DNA of 64,000 nt, from positions 6,644 to 70,643 of the forward strand of contig JBGAJW010000021.1 in the NCBI GenBank assembly GCA_044224725.1, read 5' to 3'. Of the stretch, positions 32,113-37,653 are shown piece after piece. The notes beneath the pieces are model-generated. The model did no database searches and had not been told where the DNA came from. It saw only the letters and a list, made by a program, of their open reading frames with translations. Numbering within the stretch: position 1 is the stretch's first letter; every line of letters starts with the position of its first letter. The stretch is from Flavobacteriales bacterium (GTDB taxonomy: Bacteria; Bacteroidota; Bacteroidia; Flavobacteriales_F; PHOS-HE28). The position numbers and the translations under genes are program-made.

Positions 32113-33255
32113 TCAGTTCCCCCGCCGAAGCGCGTCCGCCTTCGTCCAATTGATGAACTCGCCACCCATGAAGCGGTACACGCCGCTGGAGGTACCGAGC
32201 CATAGCTGTCCGTCCGCATCTTCCAACAGGCTCTGCACATTCTTGAGGGGGACAGCGTCCTGTTCCGTGTAGCACGTGAATGTCTTGCCATCATAACTGC
32301 ACAGCCCGTAGTTGACCGCACTGCTCCAGATGACACCGGACCGGTCCTGGTACATCGTCCAGATATGATCGCTTCTCAGGCCTTCGTCCTTGTTGAACTT
32401 CGTGAAGACCTTCCCATCGTAGGTGCACAAGCCGCCATAGCGAGTACCGAACCACACCTTGCCGGCACGGACCTCTAGGATGGACTGGACGAAGTTGTTG
32501 CAGAGCCCTTCCTTCTCTGAAAGGTTGGTCAGTGTTTTCCCATCGTAGCGATAGGCGCCACCACCGTTGGAAGCGAACCAGATGTTCCCGGCCTTGTCCT
32601 GGATGATCGCGTTGATCTGCTTCGGGTACTTGTAATACGGGAACTTTGACAGGTCAGCCGCAGGTATCGGGAACGGGCCGAAGCGCTTTCCATCGAAGCG
32701 TGAGACGCCTTCCTCGGTCCCGGCCCATAACCACCCTTCCCGATCGATCAGTAAACACCAGACTTGATCGCTGGCCAAGCCATCCTTCGTCGTGTAGCTG
32801 GTGAACCGGGTCCCATCGTAACGCGATACGCCGCCTCCCGTGGCGAACCAGATATCACCGCGCTCATCCTGCGCTATGGCACTCACCCAATTGCCGGCCA
32901 AGCCATCTGCCGTGGTGGAATACCGGAGTGATGGTCCATCACCACGTAACGCGGCCGAAGGATCATATCGGGCTACACCATCGCGGGTAGTGCCGAACCA
33001 GATGTACCCGTCGCGGTCCTGGAACATGCGGCGGATGTATTGGCTTATCTGCTCGGTGGATGTAGGGGGCTTCGCAAGGCGGGCTGCAAGGGAAGCACTG
33101 TCAGGTTGCGTGATGGTCGGGCCGGTCACATGCTCCAGGGGTTGCGTTGTCTTGACCGGTTCCGAACAGGAAGACATGGACAGCAACGCCACCAGCAGGA
33201 AATGGTCCGGCAAGCCTCGGAGTCTTCCGGATCGAACCGTATCGCGCATCTGCAT
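32113..33255 (-). CDS. Beta-propeller lipoprotein with two-component-regulator-propeller (Reg_prop) type repeats
   Basis: Lipobox LLSMSSC. Repeated units of the form DxxGxIWF(G/A)Txx.G(V/L)xRYDG.xF..Y...DGL (at least 7 copies). Confidence 0.8.
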   Translation of the reverse strand: MQMRDTVRSGRLRGLPDHFLLVALLSMSSCSEPVKTTQPLEHVTGPTITQPDSASLAARLAKPPTSTEQISQYIRRMFQDRDGYIWFGTTRDGVARYDPSAALRGDGPSLRYSTTADGLAGNWVSAIAQDERGDIWFATGGGVSRYDGTRFTSYTTKDGLASDQVWCLLIDREGWLWAGTEEGVSRFDGKRFGPFPIPAADLSKFPYYKYPKQINAIIQDKAGNIWFASNGGGAYRYDGKTLTNLSEKEGLCNNFVQSILEVRAGKVWFGTRYGGLCTYDGKVFTKFNKDEGLRSDHIWTMYQDRSGVIWSSAVNYGLCSYDGKTFTCYTEQDAVPLKNVQSLLEDADGQLWLGTSSGVYRFMGGEFINWTKADALRRGN

Positions 33256-33351
33256 GCGGCACCAAACCTACGCGGGGCCGGGCTCCAAGGGGCAACGGAA
33301 CAAGAGTCTGCCCCGTCAATCCGGGTGAAGCGTTGCCAGAGCGCTGATCGC

Positions 33352-35481
33352 ATGAGGCTGCCACCGATAGTACCCCTTTGCGCGTTGCGCCTGATGGCGG
33401 TGGCCGGTTGCGCCGCTTGGGTGTCCGGAGAAGCACTTCAGGCACAGGATTGCCTCGGCGATTTCACCGTTACGGTCACTCCGCTTCCGGAGGATGGCAC
33501 CTACGACTGCGGTCAGACGGTGACCTTCTGCCTTACGGTGAACACGTGGAACACGACCAACGCCAACTGGTTGCAAGGCGTGGTGGCTTCCTTCGGTCCC
33601 GGTTGGGACATGAACACCTTGGTGCCGGGCGCGCCGCCGGGCACGATCGGCGGATCGGGCGGCACATGGGGCTGGTACGACAGCGTTACAGGCACGGCCC
33701 CTACGAACATCGGACCACAAGGTCCCGGCTTCTTCTTCGATCTGGACAACGACGGCAACCCCGGCAACAACTTCGGCGACTTCGCCAACGCAGGACCTTG
33801 GACCTTCTGCTGGACCATCTCCGTGGCCAGCGGCGCTGATTGTGAGAATGGTGCCGACCTCACGGTATCCATCAACACCTTCGGGGACAGTGAGACCGGA
33901 AGCTGGGGAAGCGCGGGCTGCCTCGATGACGAGATCGTGGTGCTCCCGGCTACGGTGATGGCGTGTCCCACAGCAGGCATCGGCAGCCCGCAAGTGCTAT
34001 GCAACAATGGCACTGCGCTCGATCTCTTTTCCACGCTGACCGGAGACCCGGACGCCAGCGGCGTATGGACAGGACCGGGCGGCGTGCCCAGCAGCGGCGT
34101 GGTAGACCCCGCATCAAGTCCTTCAGGCGACTATACCTACACGGTAACTCCCACGGATGATTGCCCAGTGGTGAGCACCACCGTACCGGTCACCATCAAC
34201 CCCTTGCCGGATGCGGGCACGGACGGCAGCATCGCACTTTGCGAAACCGATCCGATTACAGACCTGTTCCCGGTATTGGGCGGTACGCCGCAACCGGGAG
34301 GTTCATGGACCGCACCCGGTGGTGGCCCTTCCACGGGTGCCGTGGATCCGGCTACGGCCGGCAACGGCGTCTTCACCTATACCGTGAATGGCGTACTTCC
34401 TTGCCCGAACGTGTCAGCGACGGTGACGCTGACCATCGACCACCTACCGGATCCCGGCACGGGCCAGGCGCTGAGCATGTGCCCCGAAGCGGATGTGGTG
34501 GACCTCTTCGCGCAGCTCGGTAACCAGGCCGAAGCGGGAGGTGTGTGGACCGACCCCAACGGCACGACCACGGATCCCGTTTTCGATCCCGCCCACGAGG
34601 CGCCCGGTAACTACACCTACACGGTGAGCGGCACGGGCGCCTGTGCGGGCGAGCAGTTGACCGCCGTGATGCATACCATCGTTTTCCCTTCGCCCGATCC
34701 GCTCTTCACCTTCGCGCCCGATCACGGTTGCACCCCGCTGGACGTGGACTTCGGATTGAAGAACATGGGCAACACCGTCGCCGCCGAGTGGACCTTCGGC
34801 GACGGTTCCACTGGAACGGGCGTGCCCGGCATCACCCATACCTACACCGCTCCGGGTACCATCTCCGTGGGCACCTTCGTAACGGACGTGAATGGTTGCG
34901 TGGCGGATACCATGCTGTACCACATCATCCGCGTATACCCGCCGCCCACGGCGCTTTTCCATTACACGCCCTTCCCGGAACTCACCACCGAGAACACGCA
35001 CCTCACGTTCACCGCCTTCCAGCCTGAACTGGAGAACTACGCATGGACGATCGACCAAGTGCAGCGGACCGGCCAGGAGGTGAGCTACGACTTTCCGTAT
35101 GGGTGGGCCGGCAGCTATCCCGTTTGCCTCACCGTTACCGATTCCATCGCGTGCACGGCCACACTCTGCGATACGATCGTGATCCATGATCCACTCGCCG
35201 TCTACGTGCCTAACACCTTCACACCGGATGGCGATGGCGTGAACGATGTGTGGAAACCTTCGCTGGTGAGCGCCGACCCGAAAGACCTTACGATGGAAGT
35301 CTATGATCGCTGGGGCCAGGTGGTCTTCGCCTCGAATGCACCGGATATGGGGTGGAACGGTGGCAAGGGCAACAGTGGCGGCGTGCTTCCGCAGGGCATC
35401 TACAACTGGCACTTGCGGCTGCGCAACATTTTCACCGCCGAGAGCAAGGAGTACTTCGGGCACGTGAGCTTGCTGAAGTAG
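33352..35481 (+). CDS. Large surface protein with SprB-like repeats, PKD domain and type-B (gliding-motility, CHU_C/TIGR04131-like) T9SS CTD
   Basis: Start MRLPPIVPLCALRLMAVAGCAAW (ATG 33352). Repeated D(A/P)GT(D/G)...LC.....DLF..LGG.P..GG.WT.P.G units. PKD segment FTFAPDHGCTPLDVDF. Tail VYVPNTFTPDGDGVNDVWKP...MEVYDRWGQVVF...GIYNWHLRL...YFGHVSLLK. Confidence 0.85.
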   Translation: MRLPPIVPLCALRLMAVAGCAAWVSGEALQAQDCLGDFTVTVTPLPEDGTYDCGQTVTFCLTVNTWNTTNANWLQGVVASFGPGWDMNTLVPGAPPGTIGGSGGTWGWYDSVTGTAPTNIGPQGPGFFFDLDNDGNPGNNFGDFANAGPWTFCWTISVASGADCENGADLTVSINTFGDSETGSWGSAGCLDDEIVVLPATVMACPTAGIGSPQVLCNNGTALDLFSTLTGDPDASGVWTGPGGVPSSGVVDPASSPSGDYTYTVTPTDDCPVVSTTVPVTINPLPDAGTDGSIALCETDPITDLFPVLGGTPQPGGSWTAPGGGPSTGAVDPATAGNGVFTYTVNGVLPCPNVSATVTLTIDHLPDPGTGQALSMCPEADVVDLFAQLGNQAEAGGVWTDPNGTTTDPVFDPAHEAPGNYTYTVSGTGACAGEQLTAVMHTIVFPSPDPLFTFAPDHGCTPLDVDFGLKNMGNTVAAEWTFGDGSTGTGVPGITHTYTAPGTISVGTFVTDVNGCVADTMLYHIIRVYPPPTALFHYTPFPELTTENTHLTFTAFQPELENYAWTIDQVQRTGQEVSYDFPYGWAGSYPVCLTVTDSIACTATLCDTIVIHDPLAVYVPNTFTPDGDGVNDVWKPSLVSADPKDLTMEVYDRWGQVVFASNAPDMGWNGGKGNSGGVLPQGIYNWHLRLRNIFTAESKEYFGHVSLLK

Positions 35482-35536: not shown

Positions 35537-36421
35537 TCACCAGCTTCCATTCAAATGCACTGTGCTTGGCCGTGTGGTCCCCGTTTTGTTCAATGCTGGG
35601 AAATTGCACGACCATGTCACAGCCCGAGAACAAGAAGCCCGGCACCTCGCAAGCGGATGCCGCAACGACTGACCAGAACACGCAGCGCAAGCCAGCGCAA
35701 ACACCACCGGGGAAGGATCCGAATGAATACGACCCGGTTGGCATGGCCGGTAAGCCGGCAGGTATCCTGCTCTGGCATTCAGCAGTTCGGCATACCGCAG
35801 GAGGATGAAGTCCCAATCCTGATCAGGCTCCGCGTTGAACTTCTCCAACAGTTCTGTCTTTCCGCGATCCTTGAAACGTGCGATCAGGTATTCCTTGGTC
35901 AGCGTACGACTATTGCCCGTGCTCAGGCTGAGTATGAAGTGCTGTCGATCCGCGGGATCGGCCCTGCCAGCGGCCGCCCCGGCGATCGCGCCACCGACCG
36001 CGCCACCCAATAGACCGCCCATGACGGCAGCACCCATGGCTCCATCAGGAGCTATGGCCGTGCTGAAAACGAGGTATTCGCCACGGATCAAGACCAGGCT
36101 ATACCAGGGTCCAAGCTCTTGGCGCTCACAATTGAGGAAGAGCGAATCGTTGCTCACGTAAGCGAACACCTCGCGATTCAGGAACTTCTTCGAGAGACTG
36201 TCCGAGGGGTCGGATATCCTGAAGTCGCTGCCACCCCGGAAGGCCATGCCCCCGCCCGAACGCAGCGTTACTTGAAGCTTGGCTTTCTTGGCCGGGCTCT
36301 TGGCCTTCAATTCCTGCAAGTTCATGTAGATGCCCGGGGGCAGCACGTCCGGTTGCGCACAGGCTTCTGTGAGCATTCCGGCAATACCGAAGGCGATAAG
36401 CAAGGAACGAGGGAGCCTCAT
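35537..36421 (-). CDS. Hypothetical secreted protein with Gly-zipper segment; the C-terminal ~80 codons are of doubtful coding quality
   Basis: Start MRLPRSLLIAFGIAGMLTEACAQ (CAT 36419-36421). Convincing up to ...EKFNAEPDQDWDFILLRYAELLN. The remaining tail (ARAGYLPAYRPCQPGRIHSDP...CSRAVTWSCNF...) is Arg/Cys/Ser-rich with many T-ending codons. Confidence 0.55.
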   Translation of the reverse strand: MRLPRSLLIAFGIAGMLTEACAQPDVLPPGIYMNLQELKAKSPAKKAKLQVTLRSGGGMAFRGGSDFRISDPSDSLSKKFLNREVFAYVSNDSLFLNCERQELGPWYSLVLIRGEYLVFSTAIAPDGAMGAAVMGGLLGGAVGGAIAGAAAGRADPADRQHFILSLSTGNSRTLTKEYLIARFKDRGKTELLEKFNAEPDQDWDFILLRYAELLNARAGYLPAYRPCQPGRIHSDPSPVVFALACAACSGQSLRHPLARCRASCSRAVTWSCNFPALNKTGTTRPSTVHLNGSW

Positions 36422-36522
36422 TTTCTCGGAGCACGGGGTGGGAGGGCCCAACCGTGCGGGATGAAGATACCCGCGCTGGACCACGTAGTGGTCATGCAAA
36501 CACGGATGTGCGTTCAAGCGGG

Positions 36523-36888
36523 TTAGGTACCTCTTACGGGGAGTGGCACGAGCCAAAGCGAGCGCACGGTGAGGGCCGGAGGCATGCATAGGCGTGACCC
36601 TGCGTGGACACACACCAACTTGTACAAGGTGATCGCTCCATATCTGGCCTCCGGTTCCGGGTTGTACACGACGGGTAACGCATCATCCACCTTCCGCTGG
36701 ATCCTGTGAAAGAACGGCACTGCGCCCTTTCAATGCTGCGCGGTCTTGTACAGGGAACCGGTCATGTTGGGAAGCATGGCGGGCTGGTTGTACAGCACCA
36801 GGATGATCGTGTACACGATGGACGACAGGTTGTGCGGCACGCGCTCCATCTTGCACAAGAACGCGCCCATCTTGTACAAGAAATCGCG
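36523..36888 (-). other. High-GC3 reading frame interrupted by one in-frame TGA (36730-36732); small ORFs, pseudogene remnant, or a by-product of the 21-bp repeat
   Basis: My translation is (RD)FLYKMGAFLCKMERVPHNLSSIVYTIILVLYNQPAMLPNMTGSLYKTAQH*KGAVPFFHRIQRKVDDALPVVYNPEPEARYGAITLYKLVCVH... 43 of 46 third positions are G/C in the first part. The downstream half equals track ORF 36523..36720. Confidence 0.3.
36621..36888. repeat. Degenerate 21-bp tandem array (13 registers) with palindromic core CTTGTACAAG
   Basis: Exact TGTACA at 36621, 36663, 36747, 36789, 36810 and 36873, and TGCACA at 36852. All spacings are multiples of 21 bp (42, 84, 42, 21, 42, 21). The two best units are ttcttgtacaagatgggcgcg and ttcttgtgcaagatggagcgc (minus strand). 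Confidence 0.8.
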
Positions 36889-37020
36889 TCAAGCTGGCAG
36901 GGTCAAGCACATGGCCAATGGGGCTCCACCGCGCCAAGCACCTTATCCGGCTTGGGTTGTGTGCATTCTTCCCGCGAACTGACGATCCTCGCGCAACCTC
37001 TGGAAAGATCCACGCGTTCC

Positions 37021-37653
37021 ATGGCCCCAAATGCCATGAAAAAGCTCATCAAAGCCGAGGTTCACGAGCTGCCCGCCGAAGCGCTTGTGGGCAAGACCGG
37101 GTACATCCTGCAGGCCATGAACGGCAACCCGCACTTTCCCGAACCGATACCGGCGTTGGCGATCGTTGATGCTTCGCGCCTGCGCTTGATGAAGGCCTTG
37201 GAAGAAGCGAAGGACTTTTCCCGGCCCGCCATCGTTGCCAAGAACTTGGCCGCCGAAGAGTTACGGAGTCAATTGGGCGCCTTGGCCGAATACGTGAACC
37301 TGGCCGCCGCGGGCGATCTGCTCGTGGCACTCAGCAGCGGCTTCGACGAGCGCAAGAAGCGCACGTTTGTCACCCTCAGCAGCCCGGAACTGCTGATCGC
37401 GCGCAGAGGTGCGCGCGAAGGCAGCATCGAACTCGAATGGCGACGTGTACCGGGCGTTCGCATGTTCAATGTGTACATGACCACGGGGGAAGTGTCCGCG
37501 GACAGCGTTTGGACCTGCGTGGCCCAGACCAGCCGCGCCAGGTACATCGTCAGCGGCTTGCGCCGCGATGCGTATTTCAGCTTCCGCGTTACTGCGGTAG
37601 GTGCCGCTGGAGAAGGTCTGCCCAGTGCGATCAGCACGGCCAAAGCGGCCTGA
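37021..37653 (+). CDS. Hypothetical protein with C-terminal fibronectin type III domain
   Basis: Start MAPNAMKKLIKAEV (ATG 37021; alternative 37036) inside ORF 36706..37653. C-terminal IELEWRRVPGVRMFNVYMT...YFSFRVTAVGAAGEG is FN3-like. Confidence 0.6.
   Translation: MAPNAMKKLIKAEVHELPAEALVGKTGYILQAMNGNPHFPEPIPALAIVDASRLRLMKALEEAKDFSRPAIVAKNLAAEELRSQLGALAEYVNLAAAGDLLVALSSGFDERKKRTFVTLSSPELLIARRGAREGSIELEWRRVPGVRMFNVYMTTGEVSADSVWTCVAQTSRARYIVSGLRRDAYFSFRVTAVGAAGEGLPSAISTAKAA

Follow-up and report, generated by a model that had tools for sequence, protein, structure and literature searches.

What is a long array of short palindromes, spaced at exactly two turns of the DNA helix, doing upstream of a gene of the fibronectin type III (fn3) family in a member of the Flavobacteriales? 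The array lies in a 64-kb stretch of DNA that was analysed as a whole (the window), and it had been noticed in an earlier, sequence-only reading as a series of TGTACA sites in 21-bp phase. In what follows, W is the locus in the window, and L and P numbers denote the related loci or contigs and the proteins with which it was compared.

The sites given in that reading (TGTACA at 36621, 36663, 36747, 36789, 36810 and 36873, and TGCACA at 36852) are at the exact positions stated, and the spacing of every pair is a multiple of 21. The limits of the array, first set at 36621 and 36888, could be refined to 36619–36891, a run of 13 contiguous 21-bp units (273 bp) that is apparently non-coding; homology to the related locus L017 begins exactly at 36619, the start of unit 1, and runs through the fn3 gene. 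The array and its clearest units are as follows.

36619–36891, no strand: array of 13 units of 21 bp (register table; unit-for-unit alignment with L017)
36619–36628, no strand: core of unit 1, CTTGTACAAG, a perfect 10-bp palindrome at the distal end of the array (position and register tables; start of L017 homology)
36661–36670, no strand: core of unit 3, GTTGTACACG (position and register tables)
36745–36754, no strand: core of unit 7, CTTGTACAGG (position and register tables)
36787–36817, no strand: cores of units 9 and 10, GTTGTACAGC and CGTGTACACG, the latter a perfect 10-bp palindrome (position and register tables)
36850–36880, no strand: cores of units 12 and 13, CTTGCACAAG and CTTGTACAAG, promoter-proximal and best conserved (position and register tables; L017 match)

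Each unit starts with S-N-T-G-Y-R-C-A-N-S, often with AAC or GAA next, and a clear palindrome of the TGTACA type is present in 7/13 units (six TGTACA and one TGCACA, all in one register, 36621–36878). The full 10-mer that had been proposed as the repeated element, CTTGTACAAG, was found only twice (36619 and 36871), the common motif being the degenerate one. Weaker copies had also been reported, in other registers; they are indeed present (e.g., CCTGTGAAAG at 36703, GTTGTGCGGC at 36829 and GTTGGGAAGC at 36766) and were placed in the same 21-bp register as the rest. A profile of 73 units from six loci shows the bases that are held most firmly: T at position 3 (59/73), G at 4 (60/73), C at 7 (66/73) and A at 8 (63/73), with Y at position 5 in 62 units and R at position 6 in 57, and S at positions 1, 10 and 16 at frequencies of 0.85–0.88. 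The base frequencies of positions 1 to 10 mirror one another, giving the unit dyad symmetry, and positions 1 and 10 are complementary in 45 of the 73 units where 35 were expected (p = 0.002, within-locus shuffling).

The phasing is not a product of chance, as the sequence-only reading had already argued. Only 26 copies of TGTACA occur in the whole window, so that six within 273 bp represent a strong local excess, and among the other 20 sites there is no second cluster; 12 of them lie inside filtered ORFs, in the context xTG-TAC-Axx. In 300 first-order Markov simulations of the 64-kb window, the number of in-phase TGYRCA sites within 300 bp and in one 21-bp register reached a maximum of 3, against 7 observed. 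Autocorrelation of 36600–36900, a check proposed with the original observation, gave peaks at lags of 42, 84, 63 and 21 only, and the array region has the top score in the window for lags in multiples of 21. The sole row returned for the window by Tandem Repeats Finder falls at units 12–13 (36850–36880). The GC content is 0.56–0.63 across 36400–37100.

The gene downstream had been given a start at 37021, and the ATG at 37036 is the most likely one, the sequence MKKLIKA being conserved in all homologues. The features between the array and the end of this gene are:

36881–36900, plus strand: junction motif AAATCGCGTCAAGCTGGCAG, immediately after the last core (alignment A2)
36892–37035, plus strand: conserved 145-bp spacer from array to start codon (L017 alignment; length in four loci)
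37036–37653, plus strand: gene for a 205-aa protein with an N-terminal three-helix domain and a C-terminal fn3 domain (Pfam, structure models)

The C-terminal domain was assigned by Pfam (fn3) and by fn3 matches in PDB and BFVD, and the N-terminal domain is carried by at least 422 representative clusters (50% identity). The fn3 promoter and a short 5′ leader are presumably located in this spacer. Its identity to the L017 spacer is 75% (64% for the array), its differences from L017 fall on the codon classes of the two LYK frames as 4, 10 and 7, without favouring third positions, and the distance from array to ATG is 145–146 bp in W, L017, L015 and L014. W-type relatives show almost no variation in the junction motif (consensus ..GCGCCAAGCTGGCAG, alignment A2), and in L019, L020 and L139 the array is followed by a related CCGGTAGTTCTG(G/T)CAG. 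A sigma-54 promoter with CTGGCAG as its -24 element was considered and rejected on reading the sequence, the GG to GC distance being 9 nt rather than 10 and the -12 element unconserved. By our own reading of the spacer, no Bacteroidota promoter (-33 TTTG / -7 TAnnTTTG) could be placed in it.

The fn3 gene is expressed: it was present in all eight RNA runs that were examined with the gene, and its RNA contigs begin at 36998–37066 in seven metatranscriptomes and in a less certain run, X25. From these starts the array lies roughly 100–420 bp upstream of the transcribed region. In the same seven metatranscriptomes and X25, no RNA was detected over 36426–36995 (assembled contigs of low depth, with no strand information). 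The array was covered by two runs of uncertain type (“RNA?”), and such libraries may contain DNA. That coverage counts in favour of an RNA element, in which the self-complementary units of a transcribed leader or separate RNA would pair or titrate an RNA-binding protein. The 10-mers could form 10-bp stems between adjacent units, which accounts for a weak, chance-level match to a miRNA hairpin, and TGTGCA, which tolerates G-U pairing in plus-strand RNA, outnumbers TGCACA by 11 to 3 in W-type loci. The uncovered interval in the eight runs speaks against such an element, however, as do the lack of any excess complementarity between neighbouring units and the Rfam searches of nine loci (only the chance-level miRNA in the window, E ≥ 1, and nothing in eight relatives), and we regard it as quite improbable.

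A repeat of 21 bp is also seven codons, and with its open frames and codon-like base periodicity the array resembles DNA coding for protein heptads. A small, fast-evolving ORF, encoding xxPFLY(K/N) repeats on the minus strand or LYKNGxx on the plus strand, might thus explain the repeat. The 3-base periodicity is strong (third-position class GC 0.76–1.00), both frames are nearly open with positive codon-usage scores (0.06–0.52 bits per codon), and gene callers place ORFs of 46–99 aa here, among them:

36730–36870, minus strand: 46-aa ORF (MGAFLCKMERVPHN...), judged spurious, called on contigs L002–L011

Unrelated viral 21-bp TGTRCA arrays, moreover, are real coding heptads (L103, L067, L107 and L133). 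Against this, the periodicity stems mostly from the motif itself (S-WW-S-WW-S-WW-S), and no frame shows signs of selection for coding. In both frames dN/dS is close to 1 (0.65–1.5), compared with 0.17–0.26 in the fn3 gene, and the codon classes carry substitutions in nearly equal number (31, 34 and 34). Synonymous sites of the apparent Leu and Tyr codons are frozen: the Leu codons of the motif are xTG in 41/41 cases in the plus frame and 47/48 in the minus frame (56% in genes of the genome), and the TAC:TAT ratio is 24:0 in the motif and 74:26 in the genome's genes. In-frame stops interrupt both frames in W, the minus-frame TGA aligning with TGG in L017, and ORF ends differ at every locus (W, L017, L012 and L014). 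Between lineages the peptide is not conserved beyond the DNA core, L142 has neither codon periodicity nor a called gene, a read-through peptide used as query found zero homologues in 5.8 billion proteins, and RNA coverage is lacking. The minus-strand heptad protein, first suggested by the GC3-like periodicity, was ruled out by the profile, dN/dS, the synonymous-site test and ORF boundaries; the third plus-strand frame, continuous with the fn3 ORF (36706–37653), is open but has a negative codon score and acquires stops in relatives. A conserved, translated heptad-repeat protein, the outcome that had been named as fatal to a DNA-level role, was therefore not found, and such a protein is now hardly credible.

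The comparison of orthologous regions, also proposed at the outset, showed that the array recurs upstream of the homologous gene. Arrays with a 21/42-bp period, read as DNA, lie upstream of the same gene in eleven further family members (L015, L017, L012, L014, L020/L021, L139, L142, L143, L145 and L146), with fn3 proteins 36–90% identical. A twelfth, L019, is on a contig that begins inside the array, so that its final unit and the junction motif are all that can be seen, and six more arrays are implied by mis-called N-terminal extensions with a 7- or 14-aa period (P0022, P0025, P0054, P0071, P0119 and P0155). Site number ranges from 13 to about 23. Had relatives lost the periodic sites, this would have spoken against a function; the opposite was seen, every informative relative keeping its 21/42-bp array. 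Period, array-to-gene spacing and array-gene linkage are strictly conserved. The flanking genes on the opposite side vary between loci, and no partner of the array other than the fn3-family gene is constant. One divergent, uncharacterised gene of about 180 aa is common to L142 and L146 and has no counterpart in the window.

At the level of sequence, W and L017 show zero indels from 36619 to about 37017 at an identity of only 64–75%, with conserved cores and drifting inter-core spacers. Constraint increases towards the promoter, conservation being highest in the proximal units and the junction: unit 13 matches L017 at 20/21 positions, and all 12 differences listed for a strain variant fall in distal units (36657–36778). 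The repeat itself differs between lineages (TTGTACAAG in W, CTGCGCAAG in L142, GTCTTCTGCCC in L143 and TTCGGGGAACGC in L145), and W and L015 have strongly diverged arrays beside genes that are 92% identical.

Slippage could produce a tandem repeat that then decays without any function, and the high homogeneity of the L142 and L146 arrays (units 74–81% alike) is what recent expansion or concerted evolution typically leaves, while arrays of the W type are degenerate. A neutral minisatellite is nevertheless very improbable. It would not be expected at the same place beside the same gene family across 36–90% protein identity, free of indels at 64% identity, or with cores kept while spacers drift; the array is, in addition, the same in 10 contigs that come from different samples, and so shows no copy-number instability.

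Searches beyond the family gave little. Plasmid and phage BLAST with the array and with the protein returned zero matches, and the fn3 family was absent from a scan of viral contigs. Three phased TTGTRCA sites were found at 117 loci in a viral scan; the loci that were looked at are unrelated and for the most part AT-rich coding heptads. A genome-collection scan with the DUF6563 neighbour found one truncated contig only. Literature searches turned up the TGTACA operator of YefM-YoeB and, apart from that, nothing but general studies of iterons and centromeres.

The sequence-only reading had likened the array to iterons, centromere-like partition sites and cooperative operators. A two-turn array facing one side of the helix is supported, and of the three types the iteron and the centromere differ from it in further defining features. 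Iterons, as in P1, F, RK2, R6K, pSC101 and lambda ori (P1 incA has nine), are likewise tandem repeats of ~17–22 bp at about two turns, numbering 3–10 or more, that adjoin one particular gene, evolve together with it and in many cases autoregulate it; the 13 units of exactly 21 bp agree with this. The array, however, has no Rep initiator gene (no Rep matches in Pfam, NCBIfam or PHROG) and no AT-rich unwinding element (GC 0.56–0.60 throughout), its context is chromosomal (FtsK, T9SS cargo genes) without plasmid or phage matches, and its units are palindromic where iterons are asymmetric.

Partition centromeres (R1 parC, 10 × 11 bp; pSK41 parC, 20-bp repeats; F sopC, 12 × 43 bp with an inverted repeat; tubC) are also long arrays of sites in the same phase, directly upstream of the operon they serve. 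Dimers bind them cooperatively to form a superhelical segrosome, and the promoter is also repressed. The array shares with them its position, ending 145 bp before the fn3 ATG in an arrangement kept in relatives, and with sopC a palindrome in each unit. In contrast to centromeres, its flanking genes in the window and in relatives include no ParA, ParM, TubZ, ParB, ParR, ParG or TubR and no RHH or HTH protein; it is linked to a single gene, in a chromosomal context that varies between relatives.

Phased operators are the third comparison: ARG boxes of ArgR lie 21 bp apart centre to centre, the 9-bp repeats of LytTR regulators with 12-bp spacers also give 21 bp, MetJ boxes are arranged in tandem, and LytTR regulators are common in Bacteroidota. 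Such operator pairs resemble the array in their 21-bp spacing, single face, cooperative binding and place upstream of a regulated promoter, and the array has the corresponding dyad symmetry of positions 1–10, 21-bp period and location upstream of a transcribed region. They use 2–5 sites, however, against 13–23 in the arrays, and the motifs differ, the ARG box being TGAAT..ATTCA and the LytTR site a direct repeat of [TA][AC][CA]GTTN[AG][TG] where the array has a palindrome. For LytTR sites (direct repeats of 9–10 bp with 12–13 bp between them, a period of 21–22 bp) the period fits, while the core is palindromic and off the published consensus (compared by eye) and no LytTR gene is nearby; nor could any regulator of these kinds be tied to the array. 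CRISPR arrays have repeats of 23–47 bp, unique spacers of comparable length and cas genes; here the cores are 10 bp, the 11-bp spacers are orthologously conserved, and there are no cas domains. The hexamer itself has a known binder in the YefM-YoeB system, where a dimeric repressor of the Phd/YefM antitoxin type binds 5′-TGTACA-3′ and paired palindromes lead to cooperative binding (PMC1802561). That operator has only two palindromes, 12 bp apart and overlapping a toxin-antitoxin promoter; the array has no toxin-antitoxin genes, and the likeness is confined to the hexamer.

The explanation that we prefer, tentatively and at a little under an even chance, is that the array is a DNA-level scaffold for a predicted dimeric or oligomeric protein, arranged along one face of the helix and controlling the fn3 promoter. 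A dimeric protein, probably oligomerising further, would recognise the TG-YR-CA palindrome, and the 13 sites, two helical turns apart, would be occupied cooperatively on one face to give a nucleoprotein filament or wrapped complex of roughly 270 bp. This complex, ending some 100–145 bp upstream of the fn3-family promoter, would set the expression of the gene. That a protein binds the array at all is something we infer; the dyad symmetry argues for a dimer, and position and linkage point to transcriptional control of the fn3 gene as the likely output. As had been observed before, no DNA-binding domain is found in the neighbouring genes, and among the flanking genes of the window and the relatives there is no conserved regulator either. 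Since the binder is not encoded beside the array, an unlinked regulator is taken as the working assumption. The absence of a conserved DNA-binding-domain gene beside the array also counts against the scaffold, as do a number of sites (13 to about 23) far above that of ordinary operators and the lack of a recognisable promoter in the spacer. Divergence of the repeat among distant members would be unexpected for one shared, unlinked regulator; a partner that co-evolves locally, or a role set by period rather than by sequence, is the better fit.

A co-evolving partner might be the neighbouring gene product itself, the three-helix and fn3 protein polymerising on the adjacent array, either for autoregulation or in a segrosome- or iteron-like complex. 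The fn3-family gene is the sole constant companion of the array, the conserved block spans exactly unit 1 through the gene, and the period stays fixed while the repeat changes among distant members, much as iterons and centromeres vary in sequence with their Rep or centromere-binding proteins. The N-terminal domain also has a basic ridge in which R63, K69, N70 and R77 are invariant in the six closest homologues (alignment A1). Its model (pLDDT 91), however, has no significant fold match in the PDB, DNA-binding or other (best E-value 0.76), and by our count of K/R against D/E the domain is about charge-neutral, not basic. A TGTACA core also recurs in L146, where the protein is only 40% identical, and this shows that motif and protein do not simply co-vary; the diverged arrays beside nearly identical genes in W and L015 likewise weigh against such a pair. 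We consider it unlikely. Marginally more doubtful is the broader proposal that array and gene form a self-contained, two-part module of repeat and cognate protein, wide in Bacteroidota, with a new DNA-binding fold that polymerises on two-turn-phased repeats. The role of such a module would be neither replication nor classical partition; it might, for example, be that of a chromatin-like switch or scaffold.

A role that depends on period could also be independent of any protein. Phased flexible or Z-prone tracts of alternating pyrimidine and purine (TG-YR-CA, up to 10 bp) might together make the DNA upstream of an active promoter bendable or able to absorb supercoils, with only the period and the YR character mattering. 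A constant period with lineage-variable sequence agrees with this, as does expression of the fn3 gene in situ. TGTACA, TGTGCA, TGCGCA and TGCACA all preserve YRYRYR; such transitions are the commonest mutations, so these variants do not discriminate. Tracts of 6–10 bp count as short for Z-DNA, however, YR tracts are not obvious in the L143 and L145 motifs, and the array shows neither an A-tract curvature signal nor a 10–11-bp sub-period. Purely structural DNA is rather improbable.

Returning to the protein scaffold, the pairing of array and gene across a large Bacteroidota family points to a DNA element, not described before, for protein docking or regulation, and in relation to known kinds it is best read as a variant of phased operator or iteron-like arrays, new as such. 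If it is a protein-docking element, it would be a widespread, unannotated cis-element of Bacteroidota, with 13 to about 23 sites locked at two turns and, in every case, a member of a single expressed and uncharacterised gene family beside it. Gene callers are misled by such arrays into spurious ORFs of 46–224 aa and false N-terminal extensions of fn3 proteins of up to about 220 aa, and recognition of the element would clean up this annotation. One DNA fragment and one candidate gene would then provide an experimental handle, which bears on the role of the fn3 family and on how long phased arrays control promoters in a phylum where knowledge of transcriptional regulation is limited.

The region upstream of a plus-strand gene for a 205-aa protein with an N-terminal three-helix domain and a C-terminal fn3 domain (the fn3 gene) carries a phased repeat array, laid out as follows.

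35537–36421, minus strand: DUF6563 lipoprotein-like gene, left of the array
36621, 36663, 36747, 36789, 36810 and 36873: exact TGTACA sites, all in one 21-bp register
36852: TGCACA, in the same register as the six TGTACA sites
37036 (ATG, MKKLIKA), plus strand: start of the fn3 gene (Pfam fn3 domain), right of the array

The sequence-only reading had described these seven sites as 21-bp-phased, and all are confirmed in a single register; it had placed the start of the plus-strand gene at 37021, which homologue alignment moves to the ATG at 37036. When cut at 21 bp, nt 36619–36891 gives 13 units, seven of them with a strong core of the form S-N-TGYRCA-N-S, three with weak yet recognisable cores (36703, 36766, 36829) and three with poor cores. 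The view that such phasing is very unlikely by chance is borne out, as the array holds seven in-phase TGYRCA sites while the best cluster in 300 Markov simulations of the 64-kb window held three. What had been taken as an array of one palindrome stands for the phased TGYRCA cores but not for the complete 10-mer, CTTGTACAAG, which occurs in only two copies. The proposed autocorrelation gave peak lags of 42, 84, 63 and 21, and a super-period of 42 bp is often the strongest lag, with strong and weak (or A and B) units alternating. The region is the top-scoring place for 21-bp-multiple lags in the 64-kb window (60.6% G+C), and no second array was found there. TGTACA is also in excess across the whole 64 kb (26 copies observed, 5.6 expected from dinucleotide-preserving shuffles). 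This looks like a codon-usage effect rather than a regulon, because among the 20 copies beyond the array, the 12 inside filter-picked ORFs share the context xTG-TAC-Axx.

The outer neighbours comprise a PKD/CHU_C type IX secretion cargo gene and genes for a Reg_prop protein, a MORN-repeat protein and FtsK, which places the array in a Bacteroidota chromosome. The nearest genome record is a Flavobacteriales MAG, the window sequence is present in activated-sludge metagenomes, and the array region is identical in ten metagenome contigs (L002–L011). These contigs, otherwise identical to the window, carry 142 bp (positions 1610–1751) that are missing from it at 35772, inside the DUF6563 gene just past the DUF6563 domain, which alters the C-terminal tail of the protein. 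An RNA contig of run X30 also continues into unmatched sequence at 35772, and the indel reflects a deletion at strain level or else a difference in assembly. At several otherwise unrelated loci, type IX cargo (PKD plus a CHU_C or Por_Secre_tail domain) is encoded within a few kb of an fn3-family gene, which may hint at the functional neighbourhood of the family.

Window 33040–35481, plus strand: type IX cargo
L145 601–2658, plus strand: type IX cargo, preceded by a response regulator with a GerE/LuxR domain
L012 1818–3314, plus strand: type IX cargo
L142 5748 onwards, plus strand: type IX cargo

For array comparison, contigs carrying homologues of the fn3 protein were fetched; all sequences compared are metagenomic. 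At 50% identity the family, as defined by its N-terminal domain, falls into at least 422 clusters, and almost all are ~205 aa long. The comparison of the orthologous region, which the sequence-only reading had suggested, revealed periodic arrays upstream of fn3 homologues at 36–90% identity, and we regard it as the decisive evidence.

Arrays at related loci (L numbers, fetched contigs), by fn3 protein identity
L015, 90%: TGTRCA at 15, 57, 78, 120 and 183
L017, 72%: 13 units, unit-for-unit colinear with the window
L012, 60%: TGTRCA at 643...874
L014, 59%: TGTRCA at 2300...2552
L020/L021 and L139, 51–53%: degenerate sTTGYRCRC units
L019, 53%: contig begins within the array; last unit and junction alone visible
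L142, 43%: clean tandem array of 487 bp, periods 21/42/63/126
L143, 41%: period 42 bp
L146, 40%: 16 × 21 bp, TTGCGGCATTCTTCTCTGTAC, with the TGTACA core again
L145, 36%: period 42 bp

The only apparent exception, L016, shows no array within just 161 bp upstream, on a 1.1-kb contig (NODE_54908, coverage 2.2). This contig may be chimeric rather than a true array-less family member, because the first ~30 residues of its fn3 product (P0004) fail to align with the family; they resemble a PilT/GspE-type ATPase N-terminus. Beyond the array, on the side away from the fn3 gene, the genes vary between loci, and window–L017 homology starts exactly at unit 1, so that array, spacer and gene form one conserved block. 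Divergent from the array, L142 (1566–2117, minus strand) and L146 (1664–2185, minus strand) encode homologous proteins of ~180 aa (30% identity, no Pfam family) that are absent from the window and the other loci.

Window and L017 are 64–75% identical from 36619 to ~37017 with zero indels, and array and ATG are 145–146 bp apart in four loci and ~295–307 bp apart in a second group. Base frequencies mirror across unit positions u1–u10, the core, with u1/u10 complementarity above chance (p = 0.002; 73 units from six loci, those of related loci not being fully independent), and asymmetry appears only from u11 on (A, then G at u14). There is almost no variation in unit 13, the one nearest the promoter, or in the junction ..GCGCCAAGCTGGCAG. 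In a co-occurring strain variant (run X26, contig 36621–37055) all 12 listed differences fall in distal units (36657–36778), none within 36779–37055; the distal array diverges by ~10% and the fn3 gene by only ~1.4%, a contrast pointing to a local divergence hotspot or to recombination within the array. A neutral minisatellite, in which the repeats would serve no function, is very unlikely in our estimation. The fn3 gene of L015 is 92% identical to that of the window at the nucleotide level while array and spacer are only ~55% identical; the upstream region of the window is closer to L017 but its gene is closer to L015, a pattern suggestive of recombination that broke close to the start of the gene, so that array and gene may be exchanged separately. 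The period is constant across distant lineages even as the motif drifts (TTGTACAAG, TTGTGCGCC, CTGCGCAAG, GTCTTCTGCCC, TTCGGGGAACGC). A role independent of protein, with phased alternating pyrimidine–purine tracts conferring bendability or sensing supercoiling, is possible but rather unlikely.

The array might instead encode a heptad protein. G+C at coordinates of mod 3 = 1 is 0.76–1.00 across 36614–36907, two antisense frames sharing third positions are nearly open (minus xxPFLY(K/N), plus LYKNGxx), both score positive by window codon usage, and gene calling yields a 46-aa ORF on the minus strand. However, the 3-base periodicity largely reflects the motif S-WW-S-WW-S-WW-S, and spacer positions are not clearly 3-periodic in the position profile (the same 73 units). 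Substitutions between the window and L017 arrays are even over codon classes (31, 34 and 34 of 91 each), and dN/dS (Nei-Gojobori) is 0.65–1.5 in both frames for three pairs, compared with 0.17–0.26 for the fn3 gene and 0.37–0.45 for its shadow frame. Synonymous sites are frozen: motif "Leu" codons are xTG in 41/41 (plus) and 47/48 (minus) cases, whereas 44% of Leu codons in genes here are CTC/CTT/CTA/TTA, and motif "Tyr" codons are TAC:TAT 24:0 against 74:26 in genes. Each frame of the window array has one in-frame stop, the minus-frame TGA lies opposite TGG in L017, the strain variant has lost the plus-frame stop and kept the minus-frame one, and ORF ends differ at every locus. No relative of the read-through peptide was found among 5.8 billion proteins. 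Taken together, these results argue against a product translated under selection and thus against the conserved heptad protein that the sequence-only reading had named as a refuting outcome; such a protein is the least likely of the explanations considered here. The conserved entity is the nucleotide string TG..CA and not an amino acid.

Arrays are routinely translated by gene callers, giving spurious small ORFs or fn3 N-terminal extensions to ~220 aa in public protein collections. The extensions of six family members have a 7- or 14-residue periodicity and are evidently translated arrays. Unrelated AT-rich viral contigs contain tandem repeats of 21 or 42 bp, likewise built on TGTRCA cores, and these read as truly coding, in heptads or 14-residue units; the same DNA pattern can thus come from coding sequence elsewhere.

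P0022, P0025, P0054, P0071, P0119 and P0155: mis-called N-terminal extensions
L146 2339–3013, L012 660–929 and window 36730–36870: mis-called array ORFs or extensions
L133 1166–1375, L103 479–625, L067 6597–6743 and L107 1003–1086: viral TGTRCA coding repeats

L133 may be a giant-virus contig, because it also encodes an apparent RNA-polymerase large-subunit fragment.

Transcription was assessed by placing Logan contigs from eight runs on the region: seven metatranscriptomes plus a less certain RNA run (X25), all low-depth, assembled and unstranded. All eight include the 5′ portion of the fn3 gene, with contig ends at 36998, 37039, 37040, 37045, 37055 and 37066, and some runs contain the DUF6563 gene. 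No contig in these low-depth, unstranded assemblies covers 36426–36995, which fits an array that is not transcribed and a 5′ leader that is short. The array is, however, covered in two wastewater libraries whose type is uncertain ("RNA?") and which may contain DNA. Rfam returned no match in the window or eight related loci, and an RNA element acting as transcript is decidedly unlikely.

The closest functional parallels to the array are iteron arrays, repeat centromeres (parC, sopC) and two-turn operator pairs (ArgR, LytTR). Ordinary operators have 2–5 sites, whereas the arrays here have 13–23. Unlike iteron origins, the array has no Rep, AT-rich element or replicon context, and unlike partition loci, no NTPase or centromere-binding protein was found beside it. 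YefM-YoeB operators (PMC1802561) share the TGTACA hexamer as their core, but the array locus is without toxin–antitoxin genes. The array can be placed, as a variant, among phased protein-binding repeat arrays, and is established in no named family.

As Rep binds iterons, and centromere-binding proteins their centromeres, the linked fn3-family protein could itself be the binder, which is the main alternative. This would account for the strict array–gene linkage and the lineage-specific motifs, but the confident model of the N-terminal three-helix domain (pLDDT 91) matches no DNA-binding fold, nor any PDB fold, and TGTACA returns at 40% protein identity; we consider it possible but on the unlikely side. 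Our preferred reading, held tentatively, is a scaffold for cooperative binding of an unlinked regulator along one face of the DNA, because the dyad core recurs every two helical turns and the array is indel-intolerant, apparently untranscribed and at a fixed distance upstream of one expressed gene. Loaded with protein, the array would control the promoter of the adjoining fn3 gene.
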